Below are positions 9,069 through 63,218 of a DNA stretch of 64,000 nucleotides, in pieces. Numbering within the stretch: position 1 is the first letter of the stretch; every line of letters begins with the position of its first letter. Location: positions 1-64,000 of the IMG/VR virus record IMGVR_UViG_3300038393_000573; one strand, written 5' to 3'. Below the pieces are notes generated by a model, which worked only from the letters and a program-made list of their open reading frames with translations, was not told the origin of the DNA and did no database searches. A program made the position numbers and the translations under genes. This DNA is from a virus.

Positions 9069-9094
9069 AGCTTGCAAACGTTACGCCGACTAAC

Positions 9095-10484: not shown

Positions 10485-10555
10485 TGGCTGGCCCATTGTT
10501 TTTATTCTGATGTACGGTTATAGTACAGACATTGAAACACACCGGAGCCCACCAA

Positions 10556-10705
10556 ATGGAACGCCTGATTAACGCCTTTCGCAAGTGCCCCAGCCCCAGC
10601 AATCGCGCGAAACTGGAAAAGTACATGCAACGCCACATGATGGCCCTTGCGCTCTGCACGCCCGAGCAAATCGCCTTCCTGAAGGTGCACGGGTTCAACG
10701 TCTGA
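10556..10705 (+). CDS. hypothetical protein (49 aa)
   Basis: GGAG SD; below track cutoff. Confidence 0.45.
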   Translation: MERLINAFRKCPSPSNRAKLEKYMQRHMMALALCTPEQIAFLKVHGFNV

Positions 10706-10719
10706 CACGGAGCAACATC

Positions 10720-10863
10720 ATGTTTCCTACATCCGCTTCCAATCAAATCACCTATCTCTACTTTTGCACGCTAGGCGGACTATCTAGCCCACGGGTGCAA
10801 AAAGTGCAACATCACAACGGGACGCACGTTTATTACTCCTACCACCTTACCGATAGAAGATAG
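10720..10863 (+). CDS. hypothetical protein (47 aa)
   Basis: GGAG SD; in frame with the end of ORF 10585..10863. Confidence 0.4.
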   Translation: MFPTSASNQITYLYFCTLGGLSSPRVQKVQHHNGTHVYYSYHLTDRR

Positions 10864-10906
10864 GGGTTTGTCCTAGCTTGCATCCTGCGTTGCGTAACAT
10901 TACAGT
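10861..10906 (+). promoter_or_regulatory. early cassette: TAGGGGTTTGTCCTA box plus TTGCAT-N17-TACAGT promoter
   Basis: Box 10861-10875, -35 at 10878-10883, -10 at 10901-10906. Confidence 0.6.
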
Positions 10907-10913
10907 ACACCCC

Positions 10914-11162
10914 ATGAACACGAACACCCGCACAGACTACGCCGCAGCCCTCGCACTCTTCCTGACGGAACGCAAGGGAAGCCCTCTCGCAACATGGGAA
11001 GGGAAAATGTCCGCAGCCGATCAACGCGCCCTGTTTGGCCGCTACATCGGTAAGGGGACGATTGTGATTGACGGCACGAGCGAAACCATCTGCAATCGCG
11101 TGAAGGTTTGCTTTGGGCTGGATTCCGACGACCGCAACACTACGCGCTGGGCTGCTCTGTAA
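10914..11162 (+). CDS. hypothetical protein, probably leaderless mRNA
   Basis: ATG 7 nt after the TACAGT hexamer; in frame with ORF 10878..11162. Confidence 0.5.
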   Translation: MNTNTRTDYAAALALFLTERKGSPLATWEGKMSAADQRALFGRYIGKGTIVIDGTSETICNRVKVCFGLDSDDRNTTRWAAL

Positions 11163-11202
11163 AGCCTGCTACACTACAGCCAAGCAACTAAGGAACGCAC
11201 CA

Positions 11203-11304
11203 ATGCCGATCACCCGCCCCGCTACTCCTACCCGTGCAGCTATTGCCGCGTTTGCAGCCGTGAAGGCTGCGCTAGTGGCTCAAGCTAAGGCAAGCAAGGC
11301 ATGA
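11203..11304 (+). CDS. 33-aa Ala-rich peptide
   Basis: AAGGAA SD; first member of an ATGA-coupled chain. Confidence 0.4.
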   Translation: MPITRPATPTRAAIAAFAAVKAALVAQAKASKA

Positions 11305-11329
11305 CACCACCGAACTACAGGGGCAACAA

Positions 11330-11440
11330 ATGAGAAAACACAAAGCAAGGCACTACGCCAAGTTTTACGCCTACTCCTACACGTTGCAGAATGGAGAGCA
11401 ACGGGGCAGAGTCTACGCTAAACGCTGGGGCAGTAAATGA
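11330..11440 (+). CDS. 36-aa basic peptide
   Basis: ATGA coupling at both ends. Confidence 0.4.
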   Translation: MRKHKARHYAKFYAYSYTLQNGEQRGRVYAKRWGSK

Positions 11441-11607
11441 CCACACCGCCGACATCCGAACAAGAGGCTGCAGGCCGAGAGCTACACGCAAAGAATCCCG
11501 AGGGATGGCCCAAGCCTGCGCCATGGGAAGCTTTGAATCGTGAACGGCAGCTAGGATATATTCGCTGGGCCGTGCAGAAAGCAAACAAAGCTAGGGAAAG
11601 CACCTAG
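11437..11607 (+). CDS. hypothetical protein (56 aa)
   Basis: ATGA coupling; followed by GCCCG-N8-CGGGC hairpin. Confidence 0.45.
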   Translation: MTTPPTSEQEAAGRELHAKNPEGWPKPAPWEALNRERQLGYIRWAVQKANKAREST

Positions 11608-11690
11608 GCAATAACGAACGAAAGCCCGCTACAATTCGGGCATTCGAACGCGACGGGGATGGACGGCACCCCTGCGCGACACTTTCCTTC

Positions 11691-11745
11691 TAAGGGTTTG
11701 TCCCTATAAAAAAGCCTTGCACAAGTGCCTAAGTCCAATTACAGT
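11691..11745 (+). promoter_or_regulatory. early cassette: TAAGGGTTTGTCCCTA box plus TTGCAC-N17-TACAGT promoter
   Basis: Box 11691-11706, -35 at 11717-11722, -10 at 11740-11745; leader CCCATCGCAAC. Confidence 0.65.
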
Positions 11746-11782
11746 ACACCCATCGCAACACGCAACCTGAAGGAAACGCAAA

Positions 11783-12100
11783 ATGAACATCGCCCAAGCA
11801 ATCGCAGAAGTCAAAACCGCAGCCGCCAAGTCTGAGGCCGCTATCGCAGCCGTGCCCTCCCACCTGTATGTCATCGTCTGGCATGATTGCTGCCTGAAGA
11901 CGGACGGCAAAAAGGTCGCCATTCTCGGCCCCGCGATCTACACCGGCACGCGCCAATTCATGGCGGCAGAGTGCGCAAAATGGAATGCCGCAATCGAAGG
12001 CAAGGACGACAGCCCCGCTATTGTCATGTCACAGGCTGAAGCCCTCGCCCACGTGCAACAGAAAAACGCCGACATGCTGGCAGCACTGCCGAAAGTCTAA
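11783..12100 (+). CDS. hypothetical protein
   Basis: AAGGAA SD; ORF track. Confidence 0.65.
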   Translation: MNIAQAIAEVKTAAAKSEAAIAAVPSHLYVIVWHDCCLKTDGKKVAILGPAIYTGTRQFMAAECAKWNAAIEGKDDSPAIVMSQAEALAHVQQKNADMLAALPKV

Positions 12101-12121
12101 AACCACAGCCCCGGCAGGGGC

Positions 12122-12150
12122 TTGCACTCTGCCGGGATTACGGTTACAGT
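12122..12150 (+). promoter_or_regulatory. early promoter TTGCAC-N17-TACAGT
   Basis: Preceded by GCCCC-ggca-GGGGC hairpin in place of the box. Confidence 0.6.
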
Positions 12151-12179
12151 ACACCCACATTAACCCGGAGCCGCGCCCC

Positions 12180-12326
12180 ATGCAACGTTTTCAAGTTATC
12201 GCAGTGAACGACGAACGCGACTATTGAGAGTGCTGCGGCAAAAAGAATCTCAAGCGCGTTGTCTGGATTCTCGACACTGAGACAGGCGAGCATAAACACT
12301 TCGGCTTGCGCTATGCAGCCCGTTAA
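12180..12326 (+). CDS. small Cys-rich ORF interrupted by an in-frame TGA at 12225-12227
   Basis: ATG after GGAG. 15 codons, TGA, then 32 more open codons with no internal start. The downstream part resembles the CxxC region of the 12639 gene. Confidence 0.35.
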
Positions 12327-12510
12327 AGGCTTCAACCTTGAAAAAGAAATCAAGGCTGCTATTGCCAAACACGACAGCTACATTACTTGTCTGAATTGGG
12401 CCACTCGTGCAGCGTACAAAGCCGCAGGGGGCCGCTATATCCCGCACCCGACGAAGGCCCACACTTGGACGGCTGAGAACCCGGATTTGCTGGAAAAAAT
12501 GCAAGGCTGA
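12313..12510 (+). CDS. hypothetical protein
   Basis: First ATG in ORF 12259..12510; weak SD. Confidence 0.5.
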   Translation: MQPVKGFNLEKEIKAAIAKHDSYITCLNWATRAAYKAAGGRYIPHPTKAHTWTAENPDLLEKMQG

Positions 12511-12534
12511 GGTAATCGCTAAAGGCTTTATTAC

Positions 12535-12599
12535 TAGGGTTTGTCCTAAGAAAATTCCTTGCACGGCGTATCGCAAAGCGTAGCGTTATCGTACATAAT
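12535..12599 (+). promoter_or_regulatory. early cassette: TAGGGTTTGTCCTA box plus TCGCAA-N17-CATAAT promoter
   Basis: Box 12535-12548, -35 at 12571-12576, -10 at 12594-12599; leader GCCATCGCAAC. Confidence 0.6.
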
Positions 12600-12638
12600 G
12601 GAGCCATCGCAACGGACAACCCTTACGGAGCCACCCAA

Positions 12639-13910
12639 ATGAAAGTCGCAGCTTACCGCCTTCCCGAACTGCAAAAGCGCGTTGATTCTTTCAACCGCAA
12701 GGCTGTCAAGTGGGGCCTTCCTGAAATGGGCTACACCATCACGAAGGAATGGGCTGATCCGGTTTACAAGCGCGACGCGGACGGAATTCTGTCTACCCCG
12801 CGCGAGATAGTCGCGTATCTCGAATGGGCCGAAGTGGAATTCACAGGCGAAGTGCCGAAGCTCAACGGCTGGGCCGTGCATTCCCGCGTGGAGCCCTCTG
12901 ACGTGGCCGGGCAAAACTTTGTCTTCACTGCGCCGCAGTTTGCCCCGGTAGAACGCCTGCGCTATACGTCTATGGCGTGCGAGCATTGCAACATGGACAG
13001 GGGCCGCAAGCTGGTTTATCTCCTGCAGAATCAGGAAACCGGAGAACAGAGGCTTGTCGGTCGCACCTGCGTTACTGACTTCATCCAAGCCGATGCCGAA
13101 GCCCTCCTGTCCTACCTCGGCAGCCTGCAGGCCCTGTCTACCTCTGGCGAAGATGAAGAGGAAGCCATGCGCAACGCCCCGCGCGAAGCCCTGCGCTATC
13201 CGCTCGACCTCGCAATTGCTGAAGCAATCATTGTCATCCGCAAGCGCGGCTATACGAGCAAAAAGGCAGCTAACGCCTATAACGAAAAGGTGGAGGCCGC
13301 AGCCAATCAGGCAGAGTACGAAGGCAAAGAGTTTCACGACAAGACGATTAGCCCCACTACCGCCAACATGGCAGTGCAAACGCAATACAGCCGTGGACAG
13401 AAAATCATTGATCGGAACGATTACTATACGGAAGCCGAAATTGAAGCCGCAGCCCCGGACGTTGAAGCTTTCAAAGCCTACGTTTCCACGCTTAACACCG
13501 CAGGCAATGATTTCCTCTATAACGTGGCTCTCGCCTGCCAACAATCCGCAATCAAATACACGATGTTCGGCTACATCGCCGCAGCCGTGAATATGTGGAT
13601 TGTCACTACTGCGCCGATTGCTACGCCCGAGCCGACGCAAGCCCCGAAGGCTAATAACTGGATTGGGACCGTGGGCCAGCGCATGGAATTCCATGGGCTC
13701 ACCATCACCCGCGTTTATCTGAAGGAAAGCGCCTACGGGACAACCTACATTACGACCATGGAAGACAAAGACGGGAATAGCGTTGTCTGGTTCGCGTCAA
13801 AGGCTGTGGGAGATGTGGGAGCAACGCTCAACCTGAAGGCTACGGTTAAGGCTCATGATGATTTCAAAGGCCGGAAGCAAACGGTAATCACTCGTGGGGC
13901 TTCGATCTAA
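12639..13910 (+). CDS. hypothetical protein with central CxxC...C zinc-ribbon-like motif and beta-rich C-terminal domain
   Basis: GGAG SD; 423 aa; CEHCNMDRGRKLVYLLQNQETGEQRLVGRTC; largest early ORF. Confidence 0.8.
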   Translation: MKVAAYRLPELQKRVDSFNRKAVKWGLPEMGYTITKEWADPVYKRDADGILSTPREIVAYLEWAEVEFTGEVPKLNGWAVHSRVEPSDVAGQNFVFTAPQFAPVERLRYTSMACEHCNMDRGRKLVYLLQNQETGEQRLVGRTCVTDFIQADAEALLSYLGSLQALSTSGEDEEEAMRNAPREALRYPLDLAIAEAIIVIRKRGYTSKKAANAYNEKVEAAANQAEYEGKEFHDKTISPTTANMAVQTQYSRGQKIIDRNDYYTEAEIEAAAPDVEAFKAYVSTLNTAGNDFLYNVALACQQSAIKYTMFGYIAAAVNMWIVTTAPIATPEPTQAPKANNWIGTVGQRMEFHGLTITRVYLKESAYGTTYITTMEDKDGNSVVWFASKAVGDVGATLNLKATVKAHDDFKGRKQTVITRGASI

Positions 13911-13914
13911 AGCG

Positions 13915-13957
13915 TAGGGTTTATCCCTATTTCTGATCCATGTGGTACGGTTACAGT
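13915..13957 (+). promoter_or_regulatory. early cassette: TAGGGTTTATCCCTA box plus TACAGT -10
   Basis: Box 13915-13929; GTACGGTTACAGTACA at 13946-13961; weak -35. Confidence 0.5.
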
Positions 13958-13984
13958 ACATGCATTCACCACGGAGCTAGACAA

Positions 13985-14275
13985 ATGGAAATTGCAAAGA
14001 CCATCCTTCAGCAACTCGGAGGAAACCGCTTTGCGGTTATGACCGGGGCTAAAAACTTTGTCGGCGGACATCGTGAACTGTCTTTCAAAGTGGGCCGCAA
14101 TGCCAAAGGCGTTACGCACGTGAAAATCACGCTTACCCCGGATGACCTCTACACCGTGGAAGCTTTCAAGGTTCGCGGGTTTGACTCGCGCACTGTGGAC
14201 AAGCGGGAAGGCGTTTACGTGGACGACCTCCAGCGCACGTTTACCGCCATGACTGGCTTGGATACGCACTTGTAA
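13985..14275 (+). CDS. hypothetical protein
   Basis: GGAG SD; internal ATG of ORF 13940..14275. Confidence 0.6.
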   Translation: MEIAKTILQQLGGNRFAVMTGAKNFVGGHRELSFKVGRNAKGVTHVKITLTPDDLYTVEAFKVRGFDSRTVDKREGVYVDDLQRTFTAMTGLDTHL

Positions 14276-14298
14276 CCTCAGTCGAGTAAAATGCTGGA

Positions 14299-14460
14299 AT
14301 GACGAAAACCGGACACTCCTATCCGCCCGCCCCTCCTAGCCCTCTAGACATCCCCTGCCCAGTATGCAGAGCACCAATGGGCTACCCGTGCCAACGCCCT
14401 AGCGGAGAAAAACGCGACCCGCACGAAGCTAGAAAAATGATGCACAAATTCAGCAAATGA
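14299..14460 (+). CDS. small zinc-finger-like protein (53 aa)
   Basis: CPVCRAPMGYPC...DPHEAR; paralogous motif in the 14966 gene. Confidence 0.45.
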   Translation: MTKTGHSYPPAPPSPLDIPCPVCRAPMGYPCQRPSGEKRDPHEARKMMHKFSK

Positions 14461-14469
14461 AAGGACACC

Positions 14470-14817
14470 ATGCCAAAGCCCCCTAAACGCCCCTATGCAA
14501 CGCTTTACTACTCCGACGCACGCGGGGGCCTTCCCATAGCGCAGGGAGCCTGTAAAGCTGCCGACATCAAAGGCAATGACCTACGCAATGCCAAGAGAGC
14601 CGCAGCTACGCAAGTCTTCGCGGACATGCGCTACCGCCGCGTTGAAATTGTAGACACGACTACGGGACTGCTCGCGCTGGCGCTGACACGAACTACAGCC
14701 GGGGAATTAGGCTTTCCTGACGTGGCTGGCAAACCAGCCGTCAATTACCAATGGCGTCAACGCGAGCGGGAAAAGCTGGCAGCACAAAAGGCGAGACGCA
14801 ACGGGAGCAAAAAGTGA
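14470..14817 (+). CDS. hypothetical protein
   Basis: AAGGA SD; ORF track. Confidence 0.65.
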   Translation: MPKPPKRPYATLYYSDARGGLPIAQGACKAADIKGNDLRNAKRAAATQVFADMRYRRVEIVDTTTGLLALALTRTTAGELGFPDVAGKPAVNYQWRQREREKLAAQKARRNGSKK

Positions 14818-14969
14818 AGGTTACCGTACACCTGCCCGGACTCGGGCCTATCATGGCCCTGTGGCGTGAAGTGGCCGCAGGATTGAGGCTTCGCACCTGT
14901 GACCCTCTGGCCCCGCATTACGGGGAATACATCATTCAACGGGGAACTAGCAGGGGGCTGTGGAAATGA
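14814..14969 (+). CDS. hypothetical protein (51 aa)
   Basis: GTGA overlap; frame of ORF 14751..14969. Confidence 0.4.
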   Translation: MKVTVHLPGLGPIMALWREVAAGLRLRTCDPLAPHYGEYIIQRGTSRGLWK

Positions 14970-15187
14970 TGCACCAAAGCCCTTTTAGCCCCATGGCTGG
15001 ACCACGGCAAAAACGCGAGCGTGAGCCCCTAGACGGGCCGGGCGATGCCTCATGCCCTGATTGTGGCGCTATGCCCGGAAACCCTTGTCTGAGCCTTTTG
15101 ACGGGCAAAATCCGCAAGAGCCCACACCCGGCACGAGTGGAGAGCCACAGGTATCACATGGCCGAGTGGAGGAAAGGCAGAGAATGA
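14966..15187 (+). CDS. small zinc-finger-like protein
   Basis: ATGA overlap; CPDCGAMPGNPC...SPHPAR. Confidence 0.5.
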   Translation: MMHQSPFSPMAGPRQKREREPLDGPGDASCPDCGAMPGNPCLSLLTGKIRKSPHPARVESHRYHMAEWRKGRE

Positions 15188-15223
15188 GGGTATTAGGGTT
15201 TCCGCCCCACTGCGCTATGCTTG

Positions 15224-15239
15224 TTAGGGTTTGTCCTAA
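15224..15239 (+). promoter_or_regulatory. early-region box TTAGGGTTTGTCCTAA
   Basis: Followed by TGTACGGTAAT; a degenerate copy at 15194-15209. Confidence 0.5.
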
Positions 15240-15293
15240 TGTACGGTAATGCTACGGGCTGCACAATACAGGCACCTACTAAGGAGTTTCCTC

Positions 15294-15551
15294 ATGCAAA
15301 CGAATCACGCGCACAACGCTTACCTGTCTGACCTGAAGGACATGGCAAATATGGCCCTTGCCAACTGCCCGCGCTTCATGACGCAAGCGGCTAGCCTGTT
15401 TCATATCAGCAACTATGCAGAAGACATCGGACAAGCTTGGCAGGACTCCGCTTATTCGATGGATGCCCCCGAGCGTATGCCCACGGGTGCGACGATTAAC
15501 AATGGCTATGGCAACCCCGTGCCCGCCTTCACTTCCCGCGAATCCGAGTAA
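15294..15551 (+). CDS. hypothetical protein
   Basis: TAAGGAG SD; internal ATG of ORF 15249..15551. Confidence 0.6.
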   Translation: MQTNHAHNAYLSDLKDMANMALANCPRFMTQAASLFHISNYAEDIGQAWQDSAYSMDAPERMPTGATINNGYGNPVPAFTSRESE

Positions 15552-15669
15552 TCCCCGGAACCCGAACATGATTACCATCCTCGCACTCTGCACGCTGGCC
15601 GGGCTCATGCTAGGCCATAACATCGCCAAACGCTTAGGCGTCTAACCCTGACTTAGTGGAGTGGCTCGC

Positions 15670-15957
15670 ATGATGAACGAAACTGTCCGCGTAACTTGGC
15701 ACCTGTCCGACCGGAGCCGTAGCTGGCGCATCGTAGGCTATGGCTTGCACAGTCAGGACGCATTTACCCGGCTGACCAATCAACAGCGGCAGGAAATCTG
15801 CCTGCATGGGGATAGAGTGACAGAGGAAAGAATCTCCAGCCGTCCTAGCCCCTCAGCCGATTGCCGGGAACGCACTAGAGCCCCTGAGATACAGCCGCGC
15901 CCCTATTGGGAACAGCCGGGCTGGATGTGGGGGAATGTACCGTGGGGCAGGAAATAG
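15670..15957 (+). CDS. hypothetical protein
   Basis: GGAG SD; frame of ORF 15661..15957. Confidence 0.5.
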   Translation: MMNETVRVTWHLSDRSRSWRIVGYGLHSQDAFTRLTNQQRQEICLHGDRVTEERISSRPSPSADCRERTRAPEIQPRPYWEQPGWMWGNVPWGRK

Positions 15958-15977
15958 CCTGTAAGTCTTTTCTCTAC

Positions 15978-16022
15978 TAGGGTTTGTCCTAGTCCGATAA
16001 TGCGACTTTGGCCCGTTAGAAT
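15978..16022 (+). promoter_or_regulatory. early cassette: TAGGGTTTGTCCTA box plus TAGAAT -10
   Basis: Box 15978-15991, -10 at 16017-16022; leader GCCATCGCCAAAC. Confidence 0.5.
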
Positions 16023-16067
16023 AGAGCCATCGCCAAACAACGCCGCAAGGCAAACCCGGAGATAGAC

Positions 16068-16334
16068 ATGCAACTCACTCCCGCTCAAATCACCATGATT
16101 GAAGCCCGTGAAGACCTCGCGGAATTCCTGACCCGCTCCCCGGAGTCTCAAGCCCGCGCCATCGCCCGCTGGGAAGCCATTGATGCTAGGGAATCTGCAG
16201 AATCTTCAGAATCTGCCCGGCTGGATGCTGAATCCCTTGCACGGTACAAAGCAGCCCCTCAACTGCCCGGACCCCCTAAAGGCTATGCTTACCACGTGGG
16301 GCAGGCAAGCCGTAGACGTATGCGCAAGGGCTGA
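16068..16334 (+). CDS. hypothetical protein
   Basis: GGAG SD; ORF track. Confidence 0.65.
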   Translation: MQLTPAQITMIEAREDLAEFLTRSPESQARAIARWEAIDARESAESSESARLDAESLARYKAAPQLPGPPKGYAYHVGQASRRRMRKG

Positions 16335-16366
16335 CGGCCCTTTTAAACGCCCTAGGAGGCTTTTTC

Positions 16367-16645
16367 ATGGCAAAGATACCCTACCCCATAGCCAAAGCCC
16401 GAAAAGAGGCCCTAGAGGCCGATACGCAGGCCGCAGGGGCCATTCTAGCGAATGGGTTTCCCAAAGGCCCTATGGGGCTGACACCTGACAACGTGAAAGC
16501 CTCCCCAGAGTGGCAAGAGGCAAGCCGGGCTTACGCTACAGCCTTTCAGCAACTGCGCGATTTCAATGAATGGTTTCTCAAGGAATACGCCAAAGAGGAA
16601 AAGGCCGACAGGGAAGCCCGTAGGAAAGCTAGGCAAAAGCCCTGA
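16367..16645 (+). CDS. hypothetical protein
   Basis: AGGAGG SD; ORF track. Confidence 0.65.
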   Translation: MAKIPYPIAKARKEALEADTQAAGAILANGFPKGPMGLTPDNVKASPEWQEASRAYATAFQQLRDFNEWFLKEYAKEEKADREARRKARQKP

Positions 16646-16660
16646 GCAGAAACGACAAAA

Positions 16661-16689
16661 GGACCATACCCTTACGGTATGGCCCTTTT
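16661..16689 (+). terminator. intrinsic terminator ending the early + strand block
   Basis: GGACCATACC-cttac-GGTATGGCCC followed by TTTT. Confidence 0.7.
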
Positions 16690-17192
16690 ACTAGCATCCC
16701 ACGTAGGGAAGCTCAGATTCTCTTTTCTTCTAGGATTCTTAGAAGGATTGTTTCCCTAGACTCATCCATCTAACGATGGATTCAAACACCATTGGAAGAT
16801 GCTGAAGCTATACGCTTTAGCCTGATGTCTCATCCTCTCCCCTTATGTACTCTCTTATGCAGTATCAGGGGGATTATGCCTCATCTTATATGCTTAAGCA
16901 TATGTTTAAGCCTTGCCTTAGCCTCTGCCTCTACCTCTACATCTCTTACACCCCCTGACCCCCCTCAATGGCTGAATTGTACCAATAATACAACACCTTG
17001 TCAAGATACGTAAAACTACGTATGCAGGTAGGCTGAAACGAGCTAAGGCATTGATTCGCAAGGCTAAAACAGAAAACTACGTAGTGACTTAGGTAGCTTA
17101 CTAGCCGTCAGGATGTTGTCAGCCTTTAGGCAATTTTCAGCATCCATGAATTATGAAAACGCCGTGGCCGTATATCGTAAACGCGCCGCCGA

Positions 17193-17558: not shown

Positions 17559-18224
17559 TTATTGCCTCCAGCGCGAAAGCATGTTAGCTACTGTAGTAGC
17601 TCCCCATGCCCCGCCCCTAGCTGTCGGTACACCCGTAGCGTTAAGCTCGTTAGCCACCTGTGCGATAGTCATCCCTGCAGCCCTCATACGCTCGATGGTG
17701 GGCCGCATACGGGCCGCGAAATCATCAGCCTGCCTACGCTGTACGTCGCGCCCGCTGGAGCCCGCATAGGCTAGATTCTTCGGATTGCCAAGCTTCACAC
17801 CGCGAGCCTTAAGGGCCGCAAGCCCCGCTTTGGTACGCTCACCTATCAGACGCCTTTCCTTCTCCGCTAGGGCTGCATACAGGTGAAGCACGAAGGGGTC
17901 AACATCATCCCCTAACTCCGCGACCACGAACCTAACGCCCTGTGCCATGAGCCCGCTGATAAACGCAACATCGCGGCTCAGCCGGTCAAGCTTCGCCACC
18001 AGCACCGTAGCCTTAGCGTGCCGGGCTTGGAATAGCAGCCGCTGCAGGATGGGACGCCCGGGCAGGGGCAGGCCCCCACTGGCGACCTCTACGGATTCAC
18101 CCTGCAGGCTGTAGCCTGCCCCCTGTGCGAATGCTTGGACGGCCTTAGCCTGTGCCTCTAGGCCGTTGCGGCTGTCACCCTGCTCACGAGTGGAAACACG
18201 GTAATAGGCGAATGCGGGACGCAT
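17559..18224 (-). CDS. small serine recombinase (resolvase/invertase family)
   Basis: GGAGGTG SD; N-terminal YYRVSTREQ catalytic-Ser motif; LDRLSRD; C-terminal HTH-like [15 protein letters not shown]. Confidence 0.85.
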
Positions 18225-54043: not shown

Positions 54044-54502
54044 TTATTGAAGCCAGAGTGTTGCGTCGGAGTCTTTGAAGACACGTTCGAAAATCTCTAG
54101 CAGCTTGTCCCGGTTGCCATTCGCCAGCCCGCCACCGATGAACGGTAGATGGATGGGAATGCCTCCCGGCAGTTGGGCAGCGAATCGGGCCACAGTGCTC
54201 AGGGCCTTTTCCACTGCTTCGTAGTCTACGTAGACAATGCTCTTGTCGTTGCCGTAGAACTCTTGCGTGATGGCGTTGACGATGATGTGGCCGTCCGTGT
54301 CCGTGTAGCCGTTGATGTCACCCAGCATCAACCCGTGGGCCTCTTCAGCCGTCTTGTAGATTTTGTAGGCATCGGGGAACTTGTTCCGCAGCTTGCCTGC
54401 AAACCCACTCTCCATCTTCCCTTGTGCGTTGCAGCCGTGCACGATTAGCGCAGGCGGCTTCACGTTAGCGAATAAGTCGCCCTCAACGATCTTCAGAGCC
54501 AT
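54044..54502 (-). CDS. macro-domain protein (ADP-ribose binding/hydrolase fold)
   Basis: EGDLF...ALIVHGCNAQGKMESGFAGKLRNKFPDAY and PFIGGGLANG match macro-domain signatures. Confidence 0.8.
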   Translation of the reverse strand: MALKIVEGDLFANVKPPALIVHGCNAQGKMESGFAGKLRNKFPDAYKIYKTAEEAHGLMLGDINGYTDTDGHIIVNAITQEFYGNDKSIVYVDYEAVEKALSTVARFAAQLPGGIPIHLPFIGGGLANGNRDKLLEIFERVFKDSDATLWLQ

Positions 54503-54894: not shown

Positions 54895-54952
54895 CTTTTC
54901 TTCCTTTGTAAGAAGCAAGCAGTGTAGCACTGCCTGCCGAGCTTGTCAAGAA

Positions 54953-56269
54953 TTAAATCACGTACCAGCGAAGGTTACGGGGAGCCGTAGGACCAGCATC
55001 CCGGAGTACCTTGCCAGTCTTTCGAGCATGGTCGCGCCCTTCGTCCCGCGTGGTGAAGAACTTCCGTTGCAAAGCCGCAGCCAACGCCAGCTTCACCGGG
55101 CTGCTCGCCGGGGCAGTTGCTTGCACAGCGGCCACGGCAGACTGGCCCACGAGTGCCACAGCGCGTTGCGTCAGCGCATCGTCCGGCTTGGCTTGACCGT
55201 TAGCCAGCCACGGGAAGTCCGCAGCCGTGAAGCCCGTACCCTTGGCAGGCCAGTACAGCACGCTCGTGCCTGCTACCAGCTTGCGGTTGATAGACGTGGA
55301 CTGGATGAAGATGTCGAACTGTGGCGTGGCGTCGGGATGCAGGCGCACATAACCCTTGGGCGAACGCACAGGCATGTTCAGCAGTTGGCGTGCTGCGTCA
55401 CCGCTGTACACCTTGCCGTTGGCCTTGTCGCGGATGGCAATGAGCTTGCCGTCTTGCACGCGGGCTTCCGTTTTCGTCAGTTGGTAGAACGCAGCACCCT
55501 TCAGGAACGGCGCACCGGCAAGGCGCTTCATAGCCCACGGTTGGATTTCCTCGCCGTCTTCAGTAGGCAGCACACCCCAAATGCTCACTTCCTTGGAAAC
55601 GTCCGTGAGCGTGGCTTGGACGGTTTGTGCCGTCACGCTCTGAGCGTCAGCGTAGAACACGTTGGAGCCGCGCTTGCCAGCCGCACGAGTCGCATAAAAC
55701 GTGTCGATAGCCGTCTTCGTCTGCACGGTAGATTGCGCCATGCCTGCATCCGTTGTATCCCACTCTTGGATGTTGCCGGGATAGATGTTCAGGCCCTCAA
55801 GATACCCGCGTGCACCACGCGGAACACGGAACACAAAAGTCCAACGCTCCGTCTGCTGAAGCTCTGCGATCTTGCGGGCCAGCATCGAGCGGTTCCAACG
55901 CACCGATTGGTTCTCTTGCCCGTCAGTCGTCACCATGATAAGGAACGACACGTGGGGCTCGTTTGCATCCGGCAGGGATTCAAACAGAGTGATGAGGTCG
56001 CCAATGGCATCGTACATCGCTGTCATGCCAGCAACAGGCCATTGCGTCACAGGCTTCAGCACGTGCGGGTTGCTGTTGACAATGCGACGAGTAACCTTAC
56101 TGCCGAAGTCCACAGCCGATACGATGGTATCCAGCATTTCACGGCTGGCAGCTTCGCGGATGGCTTGAGTGTTCGCGTTGGAATCGCGGATGGCAGCATT
56201 TGCCAGCGTCCCCATCGAACCCGAGTGGTCATCGGCAAAGCCGACATAATTCTTGAATTGCTTCGTCAT
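54953..56269 (-). CDS. von Willebrand factor A (vWA) domain protein with C-terminal domain of unknown function
   Basis: AAGGAAGAAA SD; MIDAS DDHSGSM, TAMYDAIG, VTTDGQEN; starts 16 nt after the NAMPT-like stop. Confidence 0.8.
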   Translation of the reverse strand: MTKQFKNYVGFADDHSGSMGTLANAAIRDSNANTQAIREAASREMLDTIVSAVDFGSKVTRRIVNSNPHVLKPVTQWPVAGMTAMYDAIGDLITLFESLPDANEPHVSFLIMVTTDGQENQSVRWNRSMLARKIAELQQTERWTFVFRVPRGARGYLEGLNIYPGNIQEWDTTDAGMAQSTVQTKTAIDTFYATRAAGKRGSNVFYADAQSVTAQTVQATLTDVSKEVSIWGVLPTEDGEEIQPWAMKRLAGAPFLKGAAFYQLTKTEARVQDGKLIAIRDKANGKVYSGDAARQLLNMPVRSPKGYVRLHPDATPQFDIFIQSTSINRKLVAGTSVLYWPAKGTGFTAADFPWLANGQAKPDDALTQRAVALVGQSAVAAVQATAPASSPVKLALAAALQRKFFTTRDEGRDHARKTGKVLRDAGPTAPRNLRWYVI

Positions 56270-56285: not shown

Positions 56286-57941
56286 TTAAAACTTGATAGT
56301 GGTGATGCCAAGCCGATACCGAATGGTTTCGTACTTCTCATCCCTGTGCAGCGAGCCGCAGTAGAAGACGGTTTCCAGTGCGCCTTGCGCTTCTTGCTCT
56401 CGCGTCTGCTGGTCGTAGAGGACGAAGTTGTCGCCCTCCTTCTCCACACGCAGCAAGCCCTTAGCAGACTTCTTCATGCCGTCACCCGTAGCTGGGTCTT
56501 TGAACAGTTCGCGGTCTTCACCCTCCACCACGCCGAACGTTGCCTTCATTGCCATGCCGAAGGTGTCCCGCGTCACGTATTGGTACGTGAAGCTGCCGAT
56601 GCCGAACACGAGGTTGCCTGCGCTGAAGCCCTTGGCCGCAAGGCGGCTGAGGATGGCTTCCTCCCGGTCCAACGTGATGCTGTCACCGTAGATGAGGCCC
56701 ACACGCTGATTCAGCGTCTTGTAGCCCTTCTCATTGGTGTCACCACCGAAGATGTCCCACAGGCACTCCACAGCACCCTTGACGACATGCTCAGGCACTT
56801 CCTTGCCGAGTGTGATACCCGTGGGCCACGAGTCGTCATAGCTGTAGTGGTAATCCACTTCGTACTCGTAGAACTTGCCTTCGTACTTCACCACTTCCTC
56901 GCCATTGACATCATCGTAGTCGTCAAGGCTTTGGATTTCCTTGTACGTCAGGCCCGTGATGATCTTCACCGGGTCGCCCGAATCGGGGCGGAACACCAGC
57001 TTGGCATTGCCCAGCGCATCGGGTTGTCGTGCGAGGATTTCATCCTTCAGTTCCAGCGCCGTTTGCGTGATGACTTTCCAGAAGTCCCACGTGTCGGACA
57101 CGATAGACAAGATGCCAGTGGGGTAGCGAGCCATCAGGCGGCGGAAAGTTTCCTTCTCATCTTCCTTGCCACCCATGCACATGACGCTGTGCTCCGTAGC
57201 CGGAACGCCCCCGCCAAGCAGTTCGAACTCCGCATCGGCGTTGTAGTATTCCTCCAGCCAATCGAGGGCAAGGATGTTGTCCGTGCCGTAGCCCGTTGCA
57301 GCCATGTGTGCACCGCCCGTGGGGCCAGCCGCCATCAGGCCATCGAGTCCACGCATGGAGAAGTCGTGAAGCTGCCAATCCACGAACTGCGGGGCAGAGC
57401 CCGTGATTTCCTGCCACTTGCGTAGGATTCGGCGGAACTCGTAGGCGATGGTAGCCACAGTGATAGGCTTCCAGCATTCAGCCGAGAACGCATCCTCCAG
57501 ATAGTTCGTCAGCCAGAAGAACTCCGGGTAGTTGGGATGGTTCGTCACCGTGAACAGCGGCACCTTCAGGTTCACACGGGAGCCTTCCGGCAGGGCCTTG
57601 ACGATGACAGGCAGGAAGCCAAGATCGTGCAGGGCTGCAATGTGTTCGGAAGTCACCACGCCAGCACCCAGCGCCGCGTCCATGCGACGGGTGTAGCGTG
57701 CGACGACTTTGTGCTTGGGCTTGTCGAAGAACTCGCGGTTCCACTGGTCGATCAAGAAGCCCTTGACCATTGCCTGCAGGCCGAAGAACACCACTTTGCC
57801 GTCCCACTCCTTGGGCATCCGTGCGTGCGTTGCTGCTCGGGCCGTGAAGTTGGAGTACACCTGTTGCGTGCCGGGCACGTATTGGTAGATATGCCCGGTC
57901 TTGTAGAAGTCACAGGCGTGGGGAGGGAAGATGTTGAACAT
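56286..57941 (-). CDS. nadV: nicotinamide phosphoribosyltransferase (NAMPT/NadV) family protein; candidate nicotinamide ADPR-transferase (Namat) of a NARP1-type pathway
   Basis: HDFSMRG, GGAHMAA, VPATEHS, SIVSDTWD, FRPDSGDP, GLIYGDS, GIGSFTYQYVTRD in NAMPT order. Confidence 0.85.
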   Translation of the reverse strand: MFNIFPPHACDFYKTGHIYQYVPGTQQVYSNFTARAATHARMPKEWDGKVVFFGLQAMVKGFLIDQWNREFFDKPKHKVVARYTRRMDAALGAGVVTSEHIAALHDLGFLPVIVKALPEGSRVNLKVPLFTVTNHPNYPEFFWLTNYLEDAFSAECWKPITVATIAYEFRRILRKWQEITGSAPQFVDWQLHDFSMRGLDGLMAAGPTGGAHMAATGYGTDNILALDWLEEYYNADAEFELLGGGVPATEHSVMCMGGKEDEKETFRRLMARYPTGILSIVSDTWDFWKVITQTALELKDEILARQPDALGNAKLVFRPDSGDPVKIITGLTYKEIQSLDDYDDVNGEEVVKYEGKFYEYEVDYHYSYDDSWPTGITLGKEVPEHVVKGAVECLWDIFGGDTNEKGYKTLNQRVGLIYGDSITLDREEAILSRLAAKGFSAGNLVFGIGSFTYQYVTRDTFGMAMKATFGVVEGEDRELFKDPATGDGMKKSAKGLLRVEKEGDNFVLYDQQTREQEAQGALETVFYCGSLHRDEKYETIRYRLGITTIKF

Positions 57942-57956
57942 TGTTTCTGTCCTTTC

Positions 57957-58781
57957 TTACTTGTTGTGGTTGCTGATGATGAGTGGATGCAGGGAGTCTG
58001 CAGCCTTGCCCATGTAGTTCGTGACGTAGATGCGATCAACGATGCCGTTGAAAACATCCACGCCAGCCGAGAAGATGCCGTGCGTGACGTACAGGAAAAT
58101 CTTCCCTTCCGTCAGAGGTCGCAGCTTCTTCGCAAGTTCCACGAACGTTCTGCCGCCATCGCAGATGTCGTCCAAGATGAGGAAGTTTCTGCTGCCGATA
58201 TGTTCGCTGTACACGATGGTGTCAAGGATTGCTCCCGTGCGAGTGTCGCGCAGCTTGTCTGCACGCACCACGTCATCGAAGGAGTGTTCCTTGGCGAACG
58301 TCAGCACCTTCTTGTTGGCCCCGGCATCCGGGCTCACTAGCACTGTTTCATCGCGGCGCAGGGCTCCGGTAAACCAGAAGGCAGCATCCGCTTGGGTCAT
58401 GTGCCGCAGATTATCCAGTAACGCAACGCCAACTTCAGAGTGGATGTCCTTCACGAACACAGCATCGAACTTAAGACTGTTGATGAAGTCGCACGCAACT
58501 TTCACGCTAAGTGATTCGCCGGGGCTGCACACACGATCCTGACGTGCGTAGGGAAGGTAGGGCATGTCCAACGTGATTCGGCCCACATTCACATTGCGAC
58601 GGATGGCGTCCACGAGCAAGGCGAGATTGAACAGGTCATCGTTGCCTTCGAAGCGCATGACGATGCGTGCGCCGAGGTCCACGCCAGCTTGCGGAGTCTC
58701 GATACGCACGAGCGTTTCGCCACCGGGGAATCGCTTCCACGTGACAGGCACCTTGCGACCGTGGATGTACAGGTCGATCAC
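57957..58781 (-). CDS. prs: ribose-phosphate pyrophosphokinase (Prs) family protein; candidate ADPR-pyrophosphate synthetase (Adps) of a NARP1-type pathway
   Basis: AGGAGA SD then GTG, overlapping the upstream TGA (GTGA). Motifs PYLPYARQDR, VSPDAGA, ILDDICDGGRT, THGIFS. The Prs DLHAxQIQGFF loop is replaced by DIHSEVGVALLDNL. Confidence 0.8.
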   Translation of the reverse strand: MIDLYIHGRKVPVTWKRFPGGETLVRIETPQAGVDLGARIVMRFEGNDDLFNLALLVDAIRRNVNVGRITLDMPYLPYARQDRVCSPGESLSVKVACDFINSLKFDAVFVKDIHSEVGVALLDNLRHMTQADAAFWFTGALRRDETVLVSPDAGANKKVLTFAKEHSFDDVVRADKLRDTRTGAILDTIVYSEHIGSRNFLILDDICDGGRTFVELAKKLRPLTEGKIFLYVTHGIFSAGVDVFNGIVDRIYVTNYMGKAADSLHPLIISNHNK

Positions 58782-59107
58782 AGGTAGTTCTCCTGAATAT
58801 GTGCAGCCATTTCGCCCGCAAACGCACGACGAGTTGTCCCTGCTTCGCCTTCCCACATAAGGTGGACACCGTAATCGAGCGGGTCATCAGGCAGGTCCAT
58901 ATCGCGGAACACGTCTCGGCAGTAGTCGTAGCCAGAGTCCACAGGTTCTTCGCCAAGGTGGATGCCATTGGCGATGAAGGCGAACGCGATGTCCTTGCAA
59001 ATGCCAGCAGTTGCGCTTCTGGCAGTAGCACCGTCACGCAGTTCGATCAACCGCTTCACTGCCACCGCGTGAACGCTGGGGCTGTACTTGCTAAGCAGAT
59101 TTTTCAT
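58778..59107 (-). CDS. hypothetical protein
   Basis: AAGGAG SD; ORF track; translationally coupled to the prs-like gene. Confidence 0.65.
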   Translation of the reverse strand: MKNLLSKYSPSVHAVAVKRLIELRDGATARSATAGICKDIAFAFIANGIHLGEEPVDSGYDYCRDVFRDMDLPDDPLDYGVHLMWEGEAGTTRRAFAGEMAAHIQENYL

Positions 59108-60098: not shown

Positions 60099-60139
60099 AA
60101 AAAAAAAAAAACGACTGAAGCACGCAGTGTGCCTCAGCC
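60099..60139 (-). terminator. strong intrinsic terminator after the redoxin gene
   Basis: 13-bp stem ACGGCTGAGGCAC/GTGCTTCAGTCGT (two G:U pairs) followed by T13 on the minus strand. Confidence 0.85.
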
Positions 60140-60150
60140 GTCCAGTAGTG

Positions 60151-60405
60151 TCAAGTCTTTTGTTGTTTCGTTGCTAAAGCCATTAGGTCTGCAGCCCCTG
60201 TCTTGGATACGGCAGCGAAGTCGCCCACGTAGACATCGCCAGCGTACACCTGTGGCACGGAACGATGGCCCTTGGCCTTGAAGAAAGCTTTCGCTCCCTC
60301 ATCCTCCGTTACCATCTTCACTTCAAACGGAATGTTGAAGCGAAGCAGCAGGGCTTTGACTGCGGTACAGCCCGGACAAGCCGGGGTCGAATAGACGGTA
60401 AGCAT
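60151..60405 (-). CDS. glutaredoxin/thioredoxin-fold redoxin (NrdH-like position)
   Basis: MLTVYSTPACPGC...VPQVY pattern; TAATG overlap with the RNR stop. Confidence 0.75.
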   Translation of the reverse strand: MLTVYSTPACPGCTAVKALLLRFNIPFEVKMVTEDEGAKAFFKAKGHRSVPQVYAGDVYVGDFAAVSKTGAADLMALATKQQKT

Positions 60406-63218
60406 TACAGGATAACCTCGCATTGGCCGCCAGCACAGGCCGCTTCCTGCGTAAAGCCCGTAGCGTCGTCGGTTTCAATCACCTGCGTAAGATCGATGCT
60501 ATGAAGCAGCGACATCATCGCATTGTACTCTTCTTCCGTGCAGTCTTCGAACGGCGCTTGGATGTACGTCCCACCGTCATAAGGCAACACGCTGATGCCG
60601 TTGTACTCGTTGCGATGCTTCCACATCCACTCACCGCAGGCTTCCCACTCGTCAGGCTTCAGGCTGATGGTGCAAGATACGTTGTGCTTCTGCACGCCGC
60701 GATTATGGCCCGGAGCAATCCACTCCTGATTGAACCTGCGAACACGCTCCAGCAAATCCAAGAACGACTCATCGCGCAAGATGGAGCCCTCGGGAGCTTT
60801 CTGCGGAATCGTCAGCACGGCTTCAAGGTGCGGTTTGAAGTGGCAATCCTCCACAAGCTCCGGGAAGTTGGCCTTCACGTAGGCGTACAGCGGCTCGTTC
60901 TTTCCAAGGCGCATACGGCGACGGTAGAACGGAGCGTGCCATGCATGGATGCCAGATGAAGAGCCCACCACGATAGAGGCAGTGCCTTCAGGCTTGAGAA
61001 GCGAGGTCCGAGCAGCCGTATTAATGCCGACTAGCGATGCCACATCCTTGTTCACTGTCACCACAATGCGTGCGGCTTCCGTCAAGTCCAGTTTCAACAC
61101 CCTGCCAGAGCCGATGCCCGTCATGGACACACCGATAAGGGCGTCTTCTTCCGTAACCTTCTTCCATTCATCCCGCAGATAGTGGAAGTCTGTATAGGAT
61201 GCTTGCAGAGTGCCGATGAGGGTAGCAGCGGCTACTCGTTTGTTCAACTCATCTTGCGTCTCGACATCCGATGCGTTAACCGTAGTAAGGTTGCAGAACG
61301 AGAACATTCGCAACGTAGCCTCGACACAGTTGTGCGCAACAACGCCATTGACGATGCCCCAATGAGTTTCAGGCTCAGTGAAGTCAAACACTTCAGCTTC
61401 CCCCGCCGACAGAACAGCCGAAACAGTAGGAGAGCTTTCGCGAATTGCTTGTGCCAGTGCTTCACGCTTGTAGCCATGCACAAACGAAACGACTTCCGCA
61501 AACCGAATCAGGTTCTCAAGCCCAGCGAGGTTAACGTCATAGCTCTCCCGGCTTTCGTATTCTCCGTTAGGCCATTGAATCCGCTTCGCCTTATTTGTCG
61601 TCACATACGGCGTCATTCCTTTGGCCTGCAGCCACTCAACTACTTGCTGTGCAAGCAACTTAGATGTCGTCTTGAGAGCAACACGTTTACCAGATGCAAT
61701 CACACACCCGTTTGCAGAGTACAGACCCATGAGGAAGTCGTCACTGCGGTTATCACCAAGCTGCCTATCAAACGTCTGTGTAACGGGCAAGCCATACTTG
61801 TCCACAAGCGATCTGGCAGATTGGAGGTAATGCCGATGGTTGTCTGACAGGGTGACCCCAAAAATGTCCGCTACTTCTACGTCATTCTCGCCAATGCACA
61901 CCACAATTCCAGCCTTGTCAGGATTTGCAGCGTCCGTCAGGCACGCATCGCCGAGCATGAAGCCAGCTTTGAAATCTTCTTGAACGCGAGGAATAGCCTT
62001 GCCGGTAAAGTAAGGCATAAGCCGCTTACCTGCCAAGTCTTTAGCCTCGCACTCCGTTCCGTCATTCAGCATGAATGTGTGATTGGGTGTGACGTACAGG
62101 CTAGGCTTCCTTCCGGCCCTGCTGTGACGAAAGCGGACTTCCACAACAGGCTTTACGCCAGTGGACCACACCTTGCCAGCGGTGAGGTTGCCGTCCTTAT
62201 TGACGTTGAGGAATTCCTTACCCACGAGGCTATCGATTCGTTTGTAGCCTTCGGAGGTAAGCAGTTCCATATCGCCCCTAAAGCACGGGTTGCTCAGAAT
62301 CTCCTTATCGTTAGTCCAATAGACGCCCGGCTCCCCCGCGTTAGACTCTTCAACTCTCTGCCACAGACGTTGAAATGCGTCTTGATCGATTTCATCCCTG
62401 TGCAACACAGCGGAGTTGTTCGCACGCCCGCGCTGGGGGTTCAGTTCCCACCATGCACCGCTCTTGCAAGTCACCATGTCAAGGTCGTCATGGCTGAAGA
62501 ACGCGATCATGGCTGCACGGCGGATACCTCCAGAAAGGACAGCATCGGCAATGTGACACTGCATATCATGGCACTCCAGCGTCGTCAGCTTGCGACCGAC
62601 AGCCCCATTCAACACCGTGCGGAGATTTTCCAGACAGATGCGCAGGGGTTCCGGGCCGGGAGCCTTGCCGCCAGCAGTTACCAGCGTGGCACCCTTCGGA
62701 CGGATATCGCGAAAATCAAAATCAGGGTTGGCCCTGCCCTCTGCGTACGCCTTCAGGAGCATCTTCACCGCGTCGCCCCAGCCTTCAATCGAATCGGAGA
62801 CAAGGTAGCGCCTGCGTGTGGTCTTCGGTCCTTGGATGACGGGCAGCTTTTCAATATGATGCTTCTGCACGCTGTAGCCTACGCCTGTGCCTCCCAGCAG
62901 CAGGAACATGGTTTCACCAAAGGCCACTACATTGTCCACGGGGAGTAGGCAGCAGTTGTAGATTCTTGTGTGGTTGAGTTCAATGGGACGCCCGCCGAAT
63001 TGCATGGATCGCATGGACGGGAGCACCTTCTTAGTCTTGACGTAATCCGTATACACGGCTCGGATGCTGTCCTCAAGCTGCGGGAACTTCTTCAGGTGCA
63101 TCGCTGCATTGCGATCACAGATTTCCTCCCACGTTTCGCGGCGCTTGAGGGCGGGAATGTATTTGGCGTACTTGTTGTAAATGATGATGTCACTGAAGAC
63201 TTGTTGGGAAATGTCCAT
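60405..63218 (-). CDS. nrdJ: ribonucleotide reductase, class II (B12-dependent, NrdJ-like), interrupted by an intein
   Basis: Exteins join to give ...EILSNP-CVEATL...FCNL (NPC-E thiyl-radical loop); C-terminal CAGGQC pair; 618 aa without the intein. Confidence 0.75.
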   Translation of the reverse strand: MDISQQVFSDIIIYNKYAKYIPALKRRETWEEICDRNAAMHLKKFPQLEDSIRAVYTDYVKTKKVLPSMRSMQFGGRPIELNHTRIYNCCLLPVDNVVAFGETMFLLLGGTGVGYSVQKHHIEKLPVIQGPKTTRRRYLVSDSIEGWGDAVKMLLKAYAEGRANPDFDFRDIRPKGATLVTAGGKAPGPEPLRICLENLRTVLNGAVGRKLTTLECHDMQCHIADAVLSGGIRRAAMIAFFSHDDLDMVTCKSGAWWELNPQRGRANNSAVLHRDEIDQDAFQRLWQRVEESNAGEPGVYWTNDKEILSNPCFRGDMELLTSEGYKRIDSLVGKEFLNVNKDGNLTAGKVWSTGVKPVVEVRFRHSRAGRKPSLYVTPNHTFMLNDGTECEAKDLAGKRLMPYFTGKAIPRVQEDFKAGFMLGDACLTDAANPDKAGIVVCIGENDVEVADIFGVTLSDNHRHYLQSARSLVDKYGLPVTQTFDRQLGDNRSDDFLMGLYSANGCVIASGKRVALKTTSKLLAQQVVEWLQAKGMTPYVTTNKAKRIQWPNGEYESRESYDVNLAGLENLIRFAEVVSFVHGYKREALAQAIRESSPTVSAVLSAGEAEVFDFTEPETHWGIVNGVVAHNCVEATLRMFSFCNLTTVNASDVETQDELNKRVAAATLIGTLQASYTDFHYLRDEWKKVTEEDALIGVSMTGIGSGRVLKLDLTEAARIVVTVNKDVASLVGINTAARTSLLKPEGTASIVVGSSSGIHAWHAPFYRRRMRLGKNEPLYAYVKANFPELVEDCHFKPHLEAVLTIPQKAPEGSILRDESFLDLLERVRRFNQEWIAPGHNRGVQKHNVSCTISLKPDEWEACGEWMWKHRNEYNGISVLPYDGGTYIQAPFEDCTEEEYNAMMSLLHSIDLTQVIETDDATGFTQEAACAGGQCEVIL
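61329..62285 (-). mobile_element. intein (319 aa) with LAGLIDADG homing-endonuclease domain
   Basis: Starts with Cys (CFRGDMELLT), ends VVAHN followed by +1 Cys; dodecapeptide motifs FKAGFMLGDA and FLMGLYSANG. Confidence 0.85.

Follow-up and report, generated by a model that had tools for sequence, protein, structure and literature searches.

NARP1, a phage pathway of NAD+ reconstitution that pairs the ADP-ribose (ADPR) pyrophosphokinase Adps with the nicotinamide ADP-ribose transferase Namat, was found in 859 of ~20,000 phage genomes (4.3%), with a Namat homologue located within 10 genes in 97% of the Adps clade (Osterman et al., 2024), and the enzymes have been the subject of two crystal and cryo-EM studies (PMC12774641; PMC13586617). 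The operon was discovered in four BASEL phages, Bas61 among them. In 15% of NARP1 operons, a Poa1p-like macro protein, Adpp, converts ADPR-1''-phosphate (ADPR-1''-P), the product of aRES, to ADPR, giving the system NARP1-AP; macro genes, which encode ADPR-1P phosphatases, are the commonest extra genes linked to NARP1 (bioRxiv 10.64898/2026.01.28.702374). NARP2, consisting of Nampt and a nicotinamide mononucleotide (NMN) adenylyltransferase (NMNAT) as in KVP40, and NARP3, consisting of PnuC and a NadR-like protein as in Bas30, share the purpose of restoring NAD+ during infection. Here, we analyzed neighboring Prs-like and NAMPT-like genes in a 64,000-nucleotide (nt) stretch of viral DNA (the window; positions 1 to 64,000 of the IMG/VR record IMGVR_UViG_3300038393_000573), which a sequence-only reading had interpreted as a NARP1 module. 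Motifs, hidden Markov model (HMM) scores, clade membership and the absence of an NMNAT support this interpretation, and it is very probable that the two genes encode Adps and Namat. The pair is clearly a further example of an already described, well-characterised pathway.

The two genes lie on the minus strand, 15 nt apart, at the coordinates given by the earlier reading. The Prs-like open reading frame (ORF; 57957..58781, 274 aa) has a GTG start with AGGAG 9 nt 5' of it. As the earlier reading had also proposed, this start (58781-58779) overlaps the TGA (58780-58778) of an upstream 109-aa ORF (58778..59107, minus strand, from the ORF calls) in the sequence GTGA, the arrangement of translationally coupled genes. 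The TAA of the Prs-like ORF is followed by the spacer gaaaggacagaaaca and then by the ATG of the NAMPT-like ORF (56286..57941, 551 aa), which places the candidate Namat gene well inside the 10-gene distance typical of the Adps clade. Pfam assigns the 274-aa protein to Pribosyltran_N/Pribosyl_synth and the 551-aa protein to NAPRTase/NAMPT_N. The Adps-then-Namat order is that of Bas61, SPbetaL1, FADO and ICP1, and the tight spacing is shared with the NARP1 loci of Bas63/Bas61, SPbetaL1, FADO and ICP1. Since the pairing is also kept in three related metagenomic phages, in every reference NARP1 phage retrieved, and in most of the bacterial loci described below, we do not consider it to be due to chance.

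The assignment of the NAMPT-like protein rests on its PDB matches, its selectivity-clamp helix (SCH) motif and its place in a tree. The structural study of Namat defines a selectivity clamp, with the SCH consensus GSX-phi-X-phi-X-phi-TRD, which is missing from Nampt (PMC12774641). This motif is present in the window protein as GSFTYQYVTRD (residues 449-459), with F451 and Y455 at both adenine-stacking positions; the corresponding sequences are GSFTYQYNTRD in SPbetaL1 and FADO, GSYTYQFNTRD in Bas61 and GMGGGLLQQLDRD in the Nampt of the KVP40 species (NARP2). In a PDB sequence search, the top matches were SPbetaL1 Namat (9w5x/9w5w, 451 bits) and 9ke8 (397 bits), with true Nampt enzymes at ~190 bits (human and rodent NAMPT) and 174 bits (Xanthomonas Nampt). 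The complete NAMPT motif set noted in the earlier reading was recovered: D11, Y13, F194, R197, D221, H251, R318 and D320 correspond to SPbetaL1 D13, Y15, F189, R192, D215, H245, R306 and D308, G419-D420 and R458-D459 are likewise kept, and all catalytic, NMN-contact and NAD+-contact residues are retained, among them the catalytic His and the Phe and Tyr that stack on nicotinamide. The protein is 49% identical to SPbetaL1 Namat and 29% identical to KVP40-type Nampt, and in a neighbor-joining tree it branches within the Namat clade and separately from Nampt of the KVP40 type. A tblastn search of phage genomes gave a bimodal distribution, with a large group at 35-54% identity (Staphylococcus and Mycobacterium phages, ICP1, Felix-like phages and other NARP1 carriers), to which the window protein belongs, and a distant group at 23-30% (KVP40-like phages, RB43 and RaK2). 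Compared with SPbetaL1 Namat, the window protein carries a 53-residue acidic and aromatic insertion (residues 331-383, window 56793-56951) at the same position as an insertion in Bas61 Namat, and the Namat proteins of close relatives are similarly long (551-580 aa). The NCBIfam model NF006629 was passed (523 bits, cut-off 405) and was dropped as a discriminator because it does not separate Namat from Nampt. By these motifs and its tree position, the 551-aa protein is of the Namat type.

For Adps, the structural study of the ICP1 enzyme describes the loss of alpha11-alpha12 at the C-terminus as the defining family signature, together with a remodelled PP loop (C215-S220), a beta-hairpin with the catalytic Lys185, and adenine contacts to ADPR by F18, R87 and F92 (PMC13586617). 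The 274-aa window protein is without the alpha11-alpha12 module and ends ~20 residues short of the E. coli Prs C-terminus, a shortening common to all Adps proteins aligned; the alignment also shows that ~17 residues at the start of Prs have no counterpart in it. The PP loops of the window protein and of Bas61 have the same sequence, CDGGRT, while the loop is CDGAAS in ICP1 and IDTGGT in E. coli Prs. K176 aligns with the catalytic K185 of ICP1, with K162 of SPbetaL1 and with K194 of Prs. The hairpin sequence K-x-R-D-x-x-T-G-x-I is found in all Adps proteins aligned, with Asn for Asp in two Bacillus phages, and not in E. coli Prs. F18, R80, H114, D152, D204, D205 and D208 are retained; since E. 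coli Prs keeps F18 and R87 (R80 in the window protein) too, these two positions have no discriminating value. The motifs PYLPYARQDR, VSPDAGA, ILDDICDGGRT and DIHSEVGVALLDNL, on which the sequence-only reading had relied, are all in the translation. That reading had further pointed to an alteration of the DLHAxQIQGFF region of true PRPP (phosphoribosyl pyrophosphate) synthetases; this is correct, and the alteration turns out to be a trait of the Adps clade, with HSEV in the window protein at the HAEQIQGFF site of Prs and HS[DE]V in 9 of 10 further aligned Adps-type sequences, all except that of Rheinheimera phage Barba.

Family scores for the Prs-like protein point in the same direction. It matches phrog_619 with 272 bits, scores 59-100 bits against the Prs-specific NCBIfam models, whose cut-offs of 296-536 bits are each missed by at least ~200 bits, and barely passes the broad TIGR01251 subfamily model (121 bits, cut-off 113). 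An HMM built from five reference Adps proteins gave 209 bits for the window protein versus 104 bits for E. coli Prs, and the preference held when the nearest reference, Bas61, was left out of the model (175 versus 89 bits). Identity is 41-43% to Bas61 Adps and 30% to E. coli Prs. Judged by motifs, indels and HMM scores, the 274-aa Prs-like protein is of the Adps type. Comparison of both proteins with Adps and Namat and with other family members, of the kind that the earlier reading had suggested as a check, groups both with experimentally validated NARP1 enzymes and not with housekeeping Prs or NARP2-type Nampt.

We then searched for the genes that would mark other NAD+ pathways. Pfam scans of the 86 called ORFs in the 64-kb window detected no member of the CTP_transf_like, NUDIX, NadR-type or PnuC families, in agreement with the earlier statement that no NadD, NadR, NMNAT or Nudix-NMNAT gene is present in the 64 kb, and a tblastn search with a Nudix-type protein as an NMNAT check gave a best E of 1.5. 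The rest of the genome, for which a search had been proposed, was represented by an 85,261-bp metagenomic contig carrying the same genome, through precomputed Pfam calls for record positions 1428-23875. Its genes include those for DNA and RNA ligases, HNH nucleases, a primase-helicase, a dGTPase-like protein and DNA polymerase A, and no NMNAT, Nudix, NadR or PnuC gene was found in it. The NMNAT check covers ~98% of the genome, all but the ends of the contig and its first ~1.4 kb, which is occupied by a DNA ligase gene. With no NMNAT, NadR or PnuC found in this part, we therefore excluded NARP2 and NARP3, and classical salvage would depend on the host because no phage adenylyltransferase was found.

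By homology to the characterised enzymes, the module would be expected to act on the products of host immunity. Defence effectors that cleave NAD+ (SIR2, TIR, SEFIR) would yield ADPR and nicotinamide; Adps would move the beta-gamma pyrophosphate of ATP onto the 1'' position of ADPR, giving ADPR-PP, and Namat would exchange the pyrophosphate of ADPR-PP for nicotinamide, giving NAD+ directly. As members of their families, Adps would act on ADPR and not on ribose-5-phosphate, and Namat would favor ADPR-PP over PRPP. NAD+ would thereby be restored from the products of NAD+-cleaving defences, and the phage is predicted to escape the Thoeris, DSR, SIR2-HerA and SEFIR systems. If the macro-domain protein discussed below is part of the module, it would remove the phosphate from ADPR-1''-P, the product of aRES-type defence, and the ADPR formed would feed the pathway.

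Several observations weigh against this assignment. The adenine contact F92 of ICP1 Adps is Cys85 in the window protein, as it likewise is Cys in Bas61 and in the relatives aligned. Raw identity to SPbetaL1 Adps is 26%, no nearer than the 30% to E. coli Prs, the Adps clade being diverse; raw identity was rejected as a discriminator on these values, which is why we used motif, indel and HMM comparisons. In Namat, the third residue of the clamp loop SCL is usually Arg, or Lys/Tyr followed by a stacking residue, with the loop variable by the authors' account (PMC12774641). In the MAFFT alignment, the third position in the window protein is none of these; Thr38-His39 are found instead, with an Arg three residues later, and the nearest relatives also have Thr-His. 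The loop that follows T-A-R reads AATHARMPKE, and MAFFT pairs T38 with R40, whereas HMMER pairs the later Arg with R40; His39 matches the fourth-position His of the Namat of Vibrio phage Pontus (NKH). Namat enzymes also form NMN from PRPP in vitro, and substrate preference is for this reason not provable from sequence alone. Finally, outside metagenomes both proteins have their nearest relatives in chromosomal prs2-nadV pairs of bacteria, whose physiological chemistry may not involve ADPR-PP.

The last two observations bear on the explanation that the pair boosts classical salvage, in which the Prs-like protein would make PRPP from ribose-5-phosphate, the NAMPT-like protein would make NMN, and the host would complete NAD+ through its NMN adenylyltransferase or by way of an NMN deamidase. 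The Pfam and NCBIfam names of the proteins, Prs and nicotinate/nicotinamide phosphoribosyltransferase, fit such a function, as does the match to NF006629, and the nearest homologue from a cultured organism, an Acinetobacter chromosomal prs-nadV, has traditionally been read as NMN salvage. The Prs-like protein nevertheless falls below all Prs-specific cut-offs, is without the regulatory/filament module and has a PP loop of the Adps type, and in the NAMPT-like protein, unlike in true Nampt, the adenine-clamp motif is present. The same annotation-based expectation was disproved for Bas63 by experiment, its operon being functional in a pncC nadR double-deletion host. We regard a salvage booster as improbable. 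An arrangement of the NARP2 type, with a PRPP-using Nampt and a phage NMNAT elsewhere in the genome, is conceivable in that the genome measures 85-87 kb, more than the window holds, and the second gene could be distant. This is extremely improbable given that CTP_transf_like, NUDIX and NadR families were found neither in the window nor in record positions 1428-23875 of the contig, that the NAMPT-like protein is distant from KVP40-type Nampt (29% identity) and without the GGGLLQ motif, and that the original survey found no phage with both Adps and NARP2. A NARP1 module composed of Adps and Namat is the reading we retain.

A macro-domain gene downstream of the pair, which the earlier reading had overlooked, is a candidate for Adpp. 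The gene (54044..54502, minus strand, 152 aa) was recognized from PHROG and PDB matches and an AlphaFold model; Pfam gave no direct match to the protein even at E = 1. It matches phrog_335, annotated as phosphatase, at 1.4e-36 and PDB macro domains at ~1e-7, and its homologues carry PF01661 or PF20016. The model has a macro fold with a pLDDT of 97, and its Foldseek neighbors are BT1257, DarG, Poa1p (top TM-score, 0.84) and TARG1, with the other three scoring similarly. Over its full length, the protein is 25% identical (E ~1e-7) to the phosphatase whose gene separates Adps from Namat in Vibrio phage Pontus, a congeneric proxy for the Adpp of Vibrio phage Gary (Thalassavirus), and it is 33% identical to the macro protein that Rheinheimera phage Barba encodes upstream of Adps. 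In two metagenomic relatives, the homologue is the next gene after Namat (L109) or the third, behind two small genes (L108). Eighteen contigs of matching size, some of 5.9-12.8 kb, are common to the lists of Adps and macro matches, which indicates a conserved Adps-macro linkage.

How far this gene makes the module a NARP1-AP is less certain than the NARP1 assignment itself. NARP1-AP is recognized by a macro protein (PF14519, PF01661 or PF20016) whose gene is no more than two genes away from the NARP1 pair. The window gene is the fourth after Namat and thus lies outside this distance, while L109 has its homologue within it; the protein is no more than 25% identical to the Thalassavirus Adpp homologue; and the macro fold class also contains the de-ADP-ribosylases DarG and TARG1. 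All three points count against an Adpp. The core pair could accordingly be NARP1 while the macro protein is a DarG/TARG1-like de-ADP-ribosylase acting on phage DNA or proteins, or a binder of an ADPR signal. Foldseek places the DarG and TARG1 macro domains alongside Poa1p, the sole NCBIfam match of the protein is a weak one to DarG, and a NADAR gene occurs in the same island of L109, where anti-ADP-ribosylation functions would then cluster. Set against these, Poa1p has the highest TM-score, the PHROG annotation is phosphatase, the linkage between macro gene and Namat is conserved, and the alignments extend to the Thalassavirus phosphatase between Adps and Namat, over its full length, and to the NARP1-adjacent macro protein of Barba. 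We therefore give a de-ADP-ribosylase or signal binder an appreciable but minor chance and lean slightly toward Adpp as the identity of the 152-aa protein. Because the macro homologue adjoins Namat in related phages, a module of the NARP1-AP type is probable.

Compared with the NARP1 loci of Bas61 and the other characterised phages, the window pair is alike in its SCH motif, catalytic core, C-terminal truncation of Adps, catalytic Lys, K-x-R-D-x-x-T-G hairpin and lack of an NMNAT, and it resembles the Bas61 type specifically in the PP loop and the Namat insertion at residues 331-383. It differs in overall sequence, with identities to the characterised enzymes of 38-50% for Namat and 26-43% for Adps, and in the SCL, where Thr-His stands in place of Arg, or Lys/Tyr plus an aromatic residue. 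As in the NARP1-AP of Gary, a small Poa1p-class macro protein, homologous to the Pontus phosphatase, is linked to Adps and Namat, but the order in the window is Adps-Namat-...-macro rather than Adps-macro-Namat, and the macro gene differs in its greater distance and its low identity to that homologue. NARP2 and NARP3 differ from the window in their NMNAT, NadR or PnuC genes, and the NAMPT-like protein of the window is of the Namat and not the Nampt type. The details that set the window apart, namely the Thr-His clamp loop, the Adps-Namat-...-macro order and an inserted vWA-like gene, are minor, and knowledge of the pathway itself is unchanged by them. What is added is a confidently assigned NARP1 module, probably a NARP1-AP, from a group of uncultured ~85-kb phages often met in metagenomes. 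The comparison also shows that such pairs can be classified without experiments by the published sequence rules (the Namat clamp motif and the C-terminal truncation and PP loop of Adps), so that phage genes annotated as "Prs/NadV" become correctly annotatable and resistance to NAD+-depleting defences can be predicted for this phage.

We also noted relatives of both genes in bacterial chromosomes. The top "phage" match for Namat, with 54% identity, is annotated as Acinetobacter phage MD-2021a (CAKLQF020000015.1), and this contig is an Acinetobacter chromosomal prsA_2-nadV contig. MD-2021a was considered as evidence for an NMNAT-linked pathway and rejected on that ground: the gene annotated as "bifunctional NMNAT/ADPR pyrophosphatase" encodes a 255-aa, NrtR-like protein with Nudix and winged helix-turn-helix domains. 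A scan of bacteria, limited to one genome per species, gave 80 loci (L028-L107) from many phyla. The Namat relatives at these loci are 47-56% identical to the window Namat and have the aromatic clamp motif in all 80 cases; an Adps-like gene is present in 75 of the 80, usually 20-180 nt upstream, and most loci have an NrtR-like neighbor. The bacterial prs2-nadV operons are thus like the window pair in the aromatic SCH motif, the Adps-like partner directly upstream and the DDICDGG PP loop, and unlike it in being chromosomal, usually with an NrtR-like Nudix regulator, with no phage context and with a Namat that is without the 53-aa insertion. Based on the frequencies of the clamp motif and the Adps-like gene, NARP1-type pairs seem far commoner in bacterial chromosomes than the literature implies, and NARP1-type chemistry may be common there. 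These prs2-nadV-nrtR signatures across many phyla may merit more attention than the phage pair itself.

Downstream of Namat, the next gene encodes a 438-aa vWA-like protein with a DxSGS MIDAS-like motif (DDHSGSM; 54953..56269, minus strand) and starts 16 nt past the Namat stop. The protein matches phrog_26613, a family of unknown function (1.8e-70), and gave no match in Pfam or PDB searches. The gene, together with two small ORFs, separates Namat from the macro gene in the window. It also sits between the two in the closest relative, L024, and is missing from this position in L108 and L109; its homologues in Caulobacter phage Cr30 (45% identity), Mycobacterium phages and Streptomyces phages have no NARP1 beside them. 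We therefore discarded the vWA-like gene as a NARP1 partner, and it is most likely an insertion in the cluster. For the 109-aa ORF upstream of Adps, no match was found in Pfam, PHROG or NCBIfam, and no homologue in L024; it is possible that it encodes a small anti-defence protein. Pfam scans for a neighbor of the RyDEP type revealed no RyR family member in any small ORF. A broader proposal would combine these elements in a three-enzyme module of the order Adps-Namat-Adpp split by the vWA-like gene, with the vWA-like protein and the 109-aa ORF as new accessories of NAD+/ADPR counter-defence, for example in sensing or sequestering a defence component, or, in a variant, with the Thr-His loop as the mark of a Namat subgroup with altered donor specificity. 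We consider this proposal improbable.

Two candidate transcription signals were noted near these genes on the minus strand. A strong terminator-like hairpin (60109..60143) with 15 pairs and a T10 run, from a consensus scan only, follows the glutaredoxin gene and probably marks the upstream limit of the transcription unit to which the module belongs. A sigma-70-like promoter, TTGACA-17-TACACT (54921..54949), comes after the vWA-like gene and ahead of the small ORFs before the macro gene; it is a consensus match only, and the evidence for it is weak because the number of such matches in the region is below that expected from shuffled sequence.

The window encodes a terminase, a Mu-type portal, an S49 protease, a decoration protein, an E-type major capsid protein, a lambda-type tail tube, a 2223-aa tape measure protein and an endolysin, as well as PhoH, a dCMP deaminase, glutaredoxin and an intein-containing class II ribonucleotide reductase. 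Identical proteins are encoded by metagenomic contigs that reach 85,261 and 87,099 bp. Megablast of the 2.5-kb region of the gene pair against 50,697 phage records gave no match, and the terminase is at most ~43% identical to that of any cultured phage. The host of the module is an uncultured phage of ~85 kb with siphovirus-type tail genes and without a close sequenced relative.

Other features of this genome and its relatives were noted in passing. The class II ribonucleotide reductase (60405-63218, minus strand, 937 aa) is split by an intein that includes a LAGLIDADG endonuclease; its orthologue in L024 is intein-free (617 aa), and in the window the glutaredoxin gene follows it (60151-60423). 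A 221-aa serine recombinase with a Resolvase domain and the start of a Recombinase domain (17562-18224, minus strand), possibly an invertase or what is left of an integrase, is encoded where the leftward and rightward gene blocks meet. Positions 1-17000 hold 29 small plus-strand ORFs, none with a Pfam match, and the metagenomic contigs that contain this region all end within ~400 bp of the window start; the common break could be a genome end or a repeat. In a more distant relative (L025:1703-2332), a protein of the AAA_28 family, which is the family of the NadR ribosylnicotinamide-kinase domain, is encoded ~6 kb upstream of the Adps-Namat pair. In L109, genes for NADAR (PF08719) and YAcAr (PF10686) are found just upstream of Adps-Namat-Macro (L109:3800-4913), which suggests that this phage has an island of NAD+/ADP-ribose counter-defence genes.

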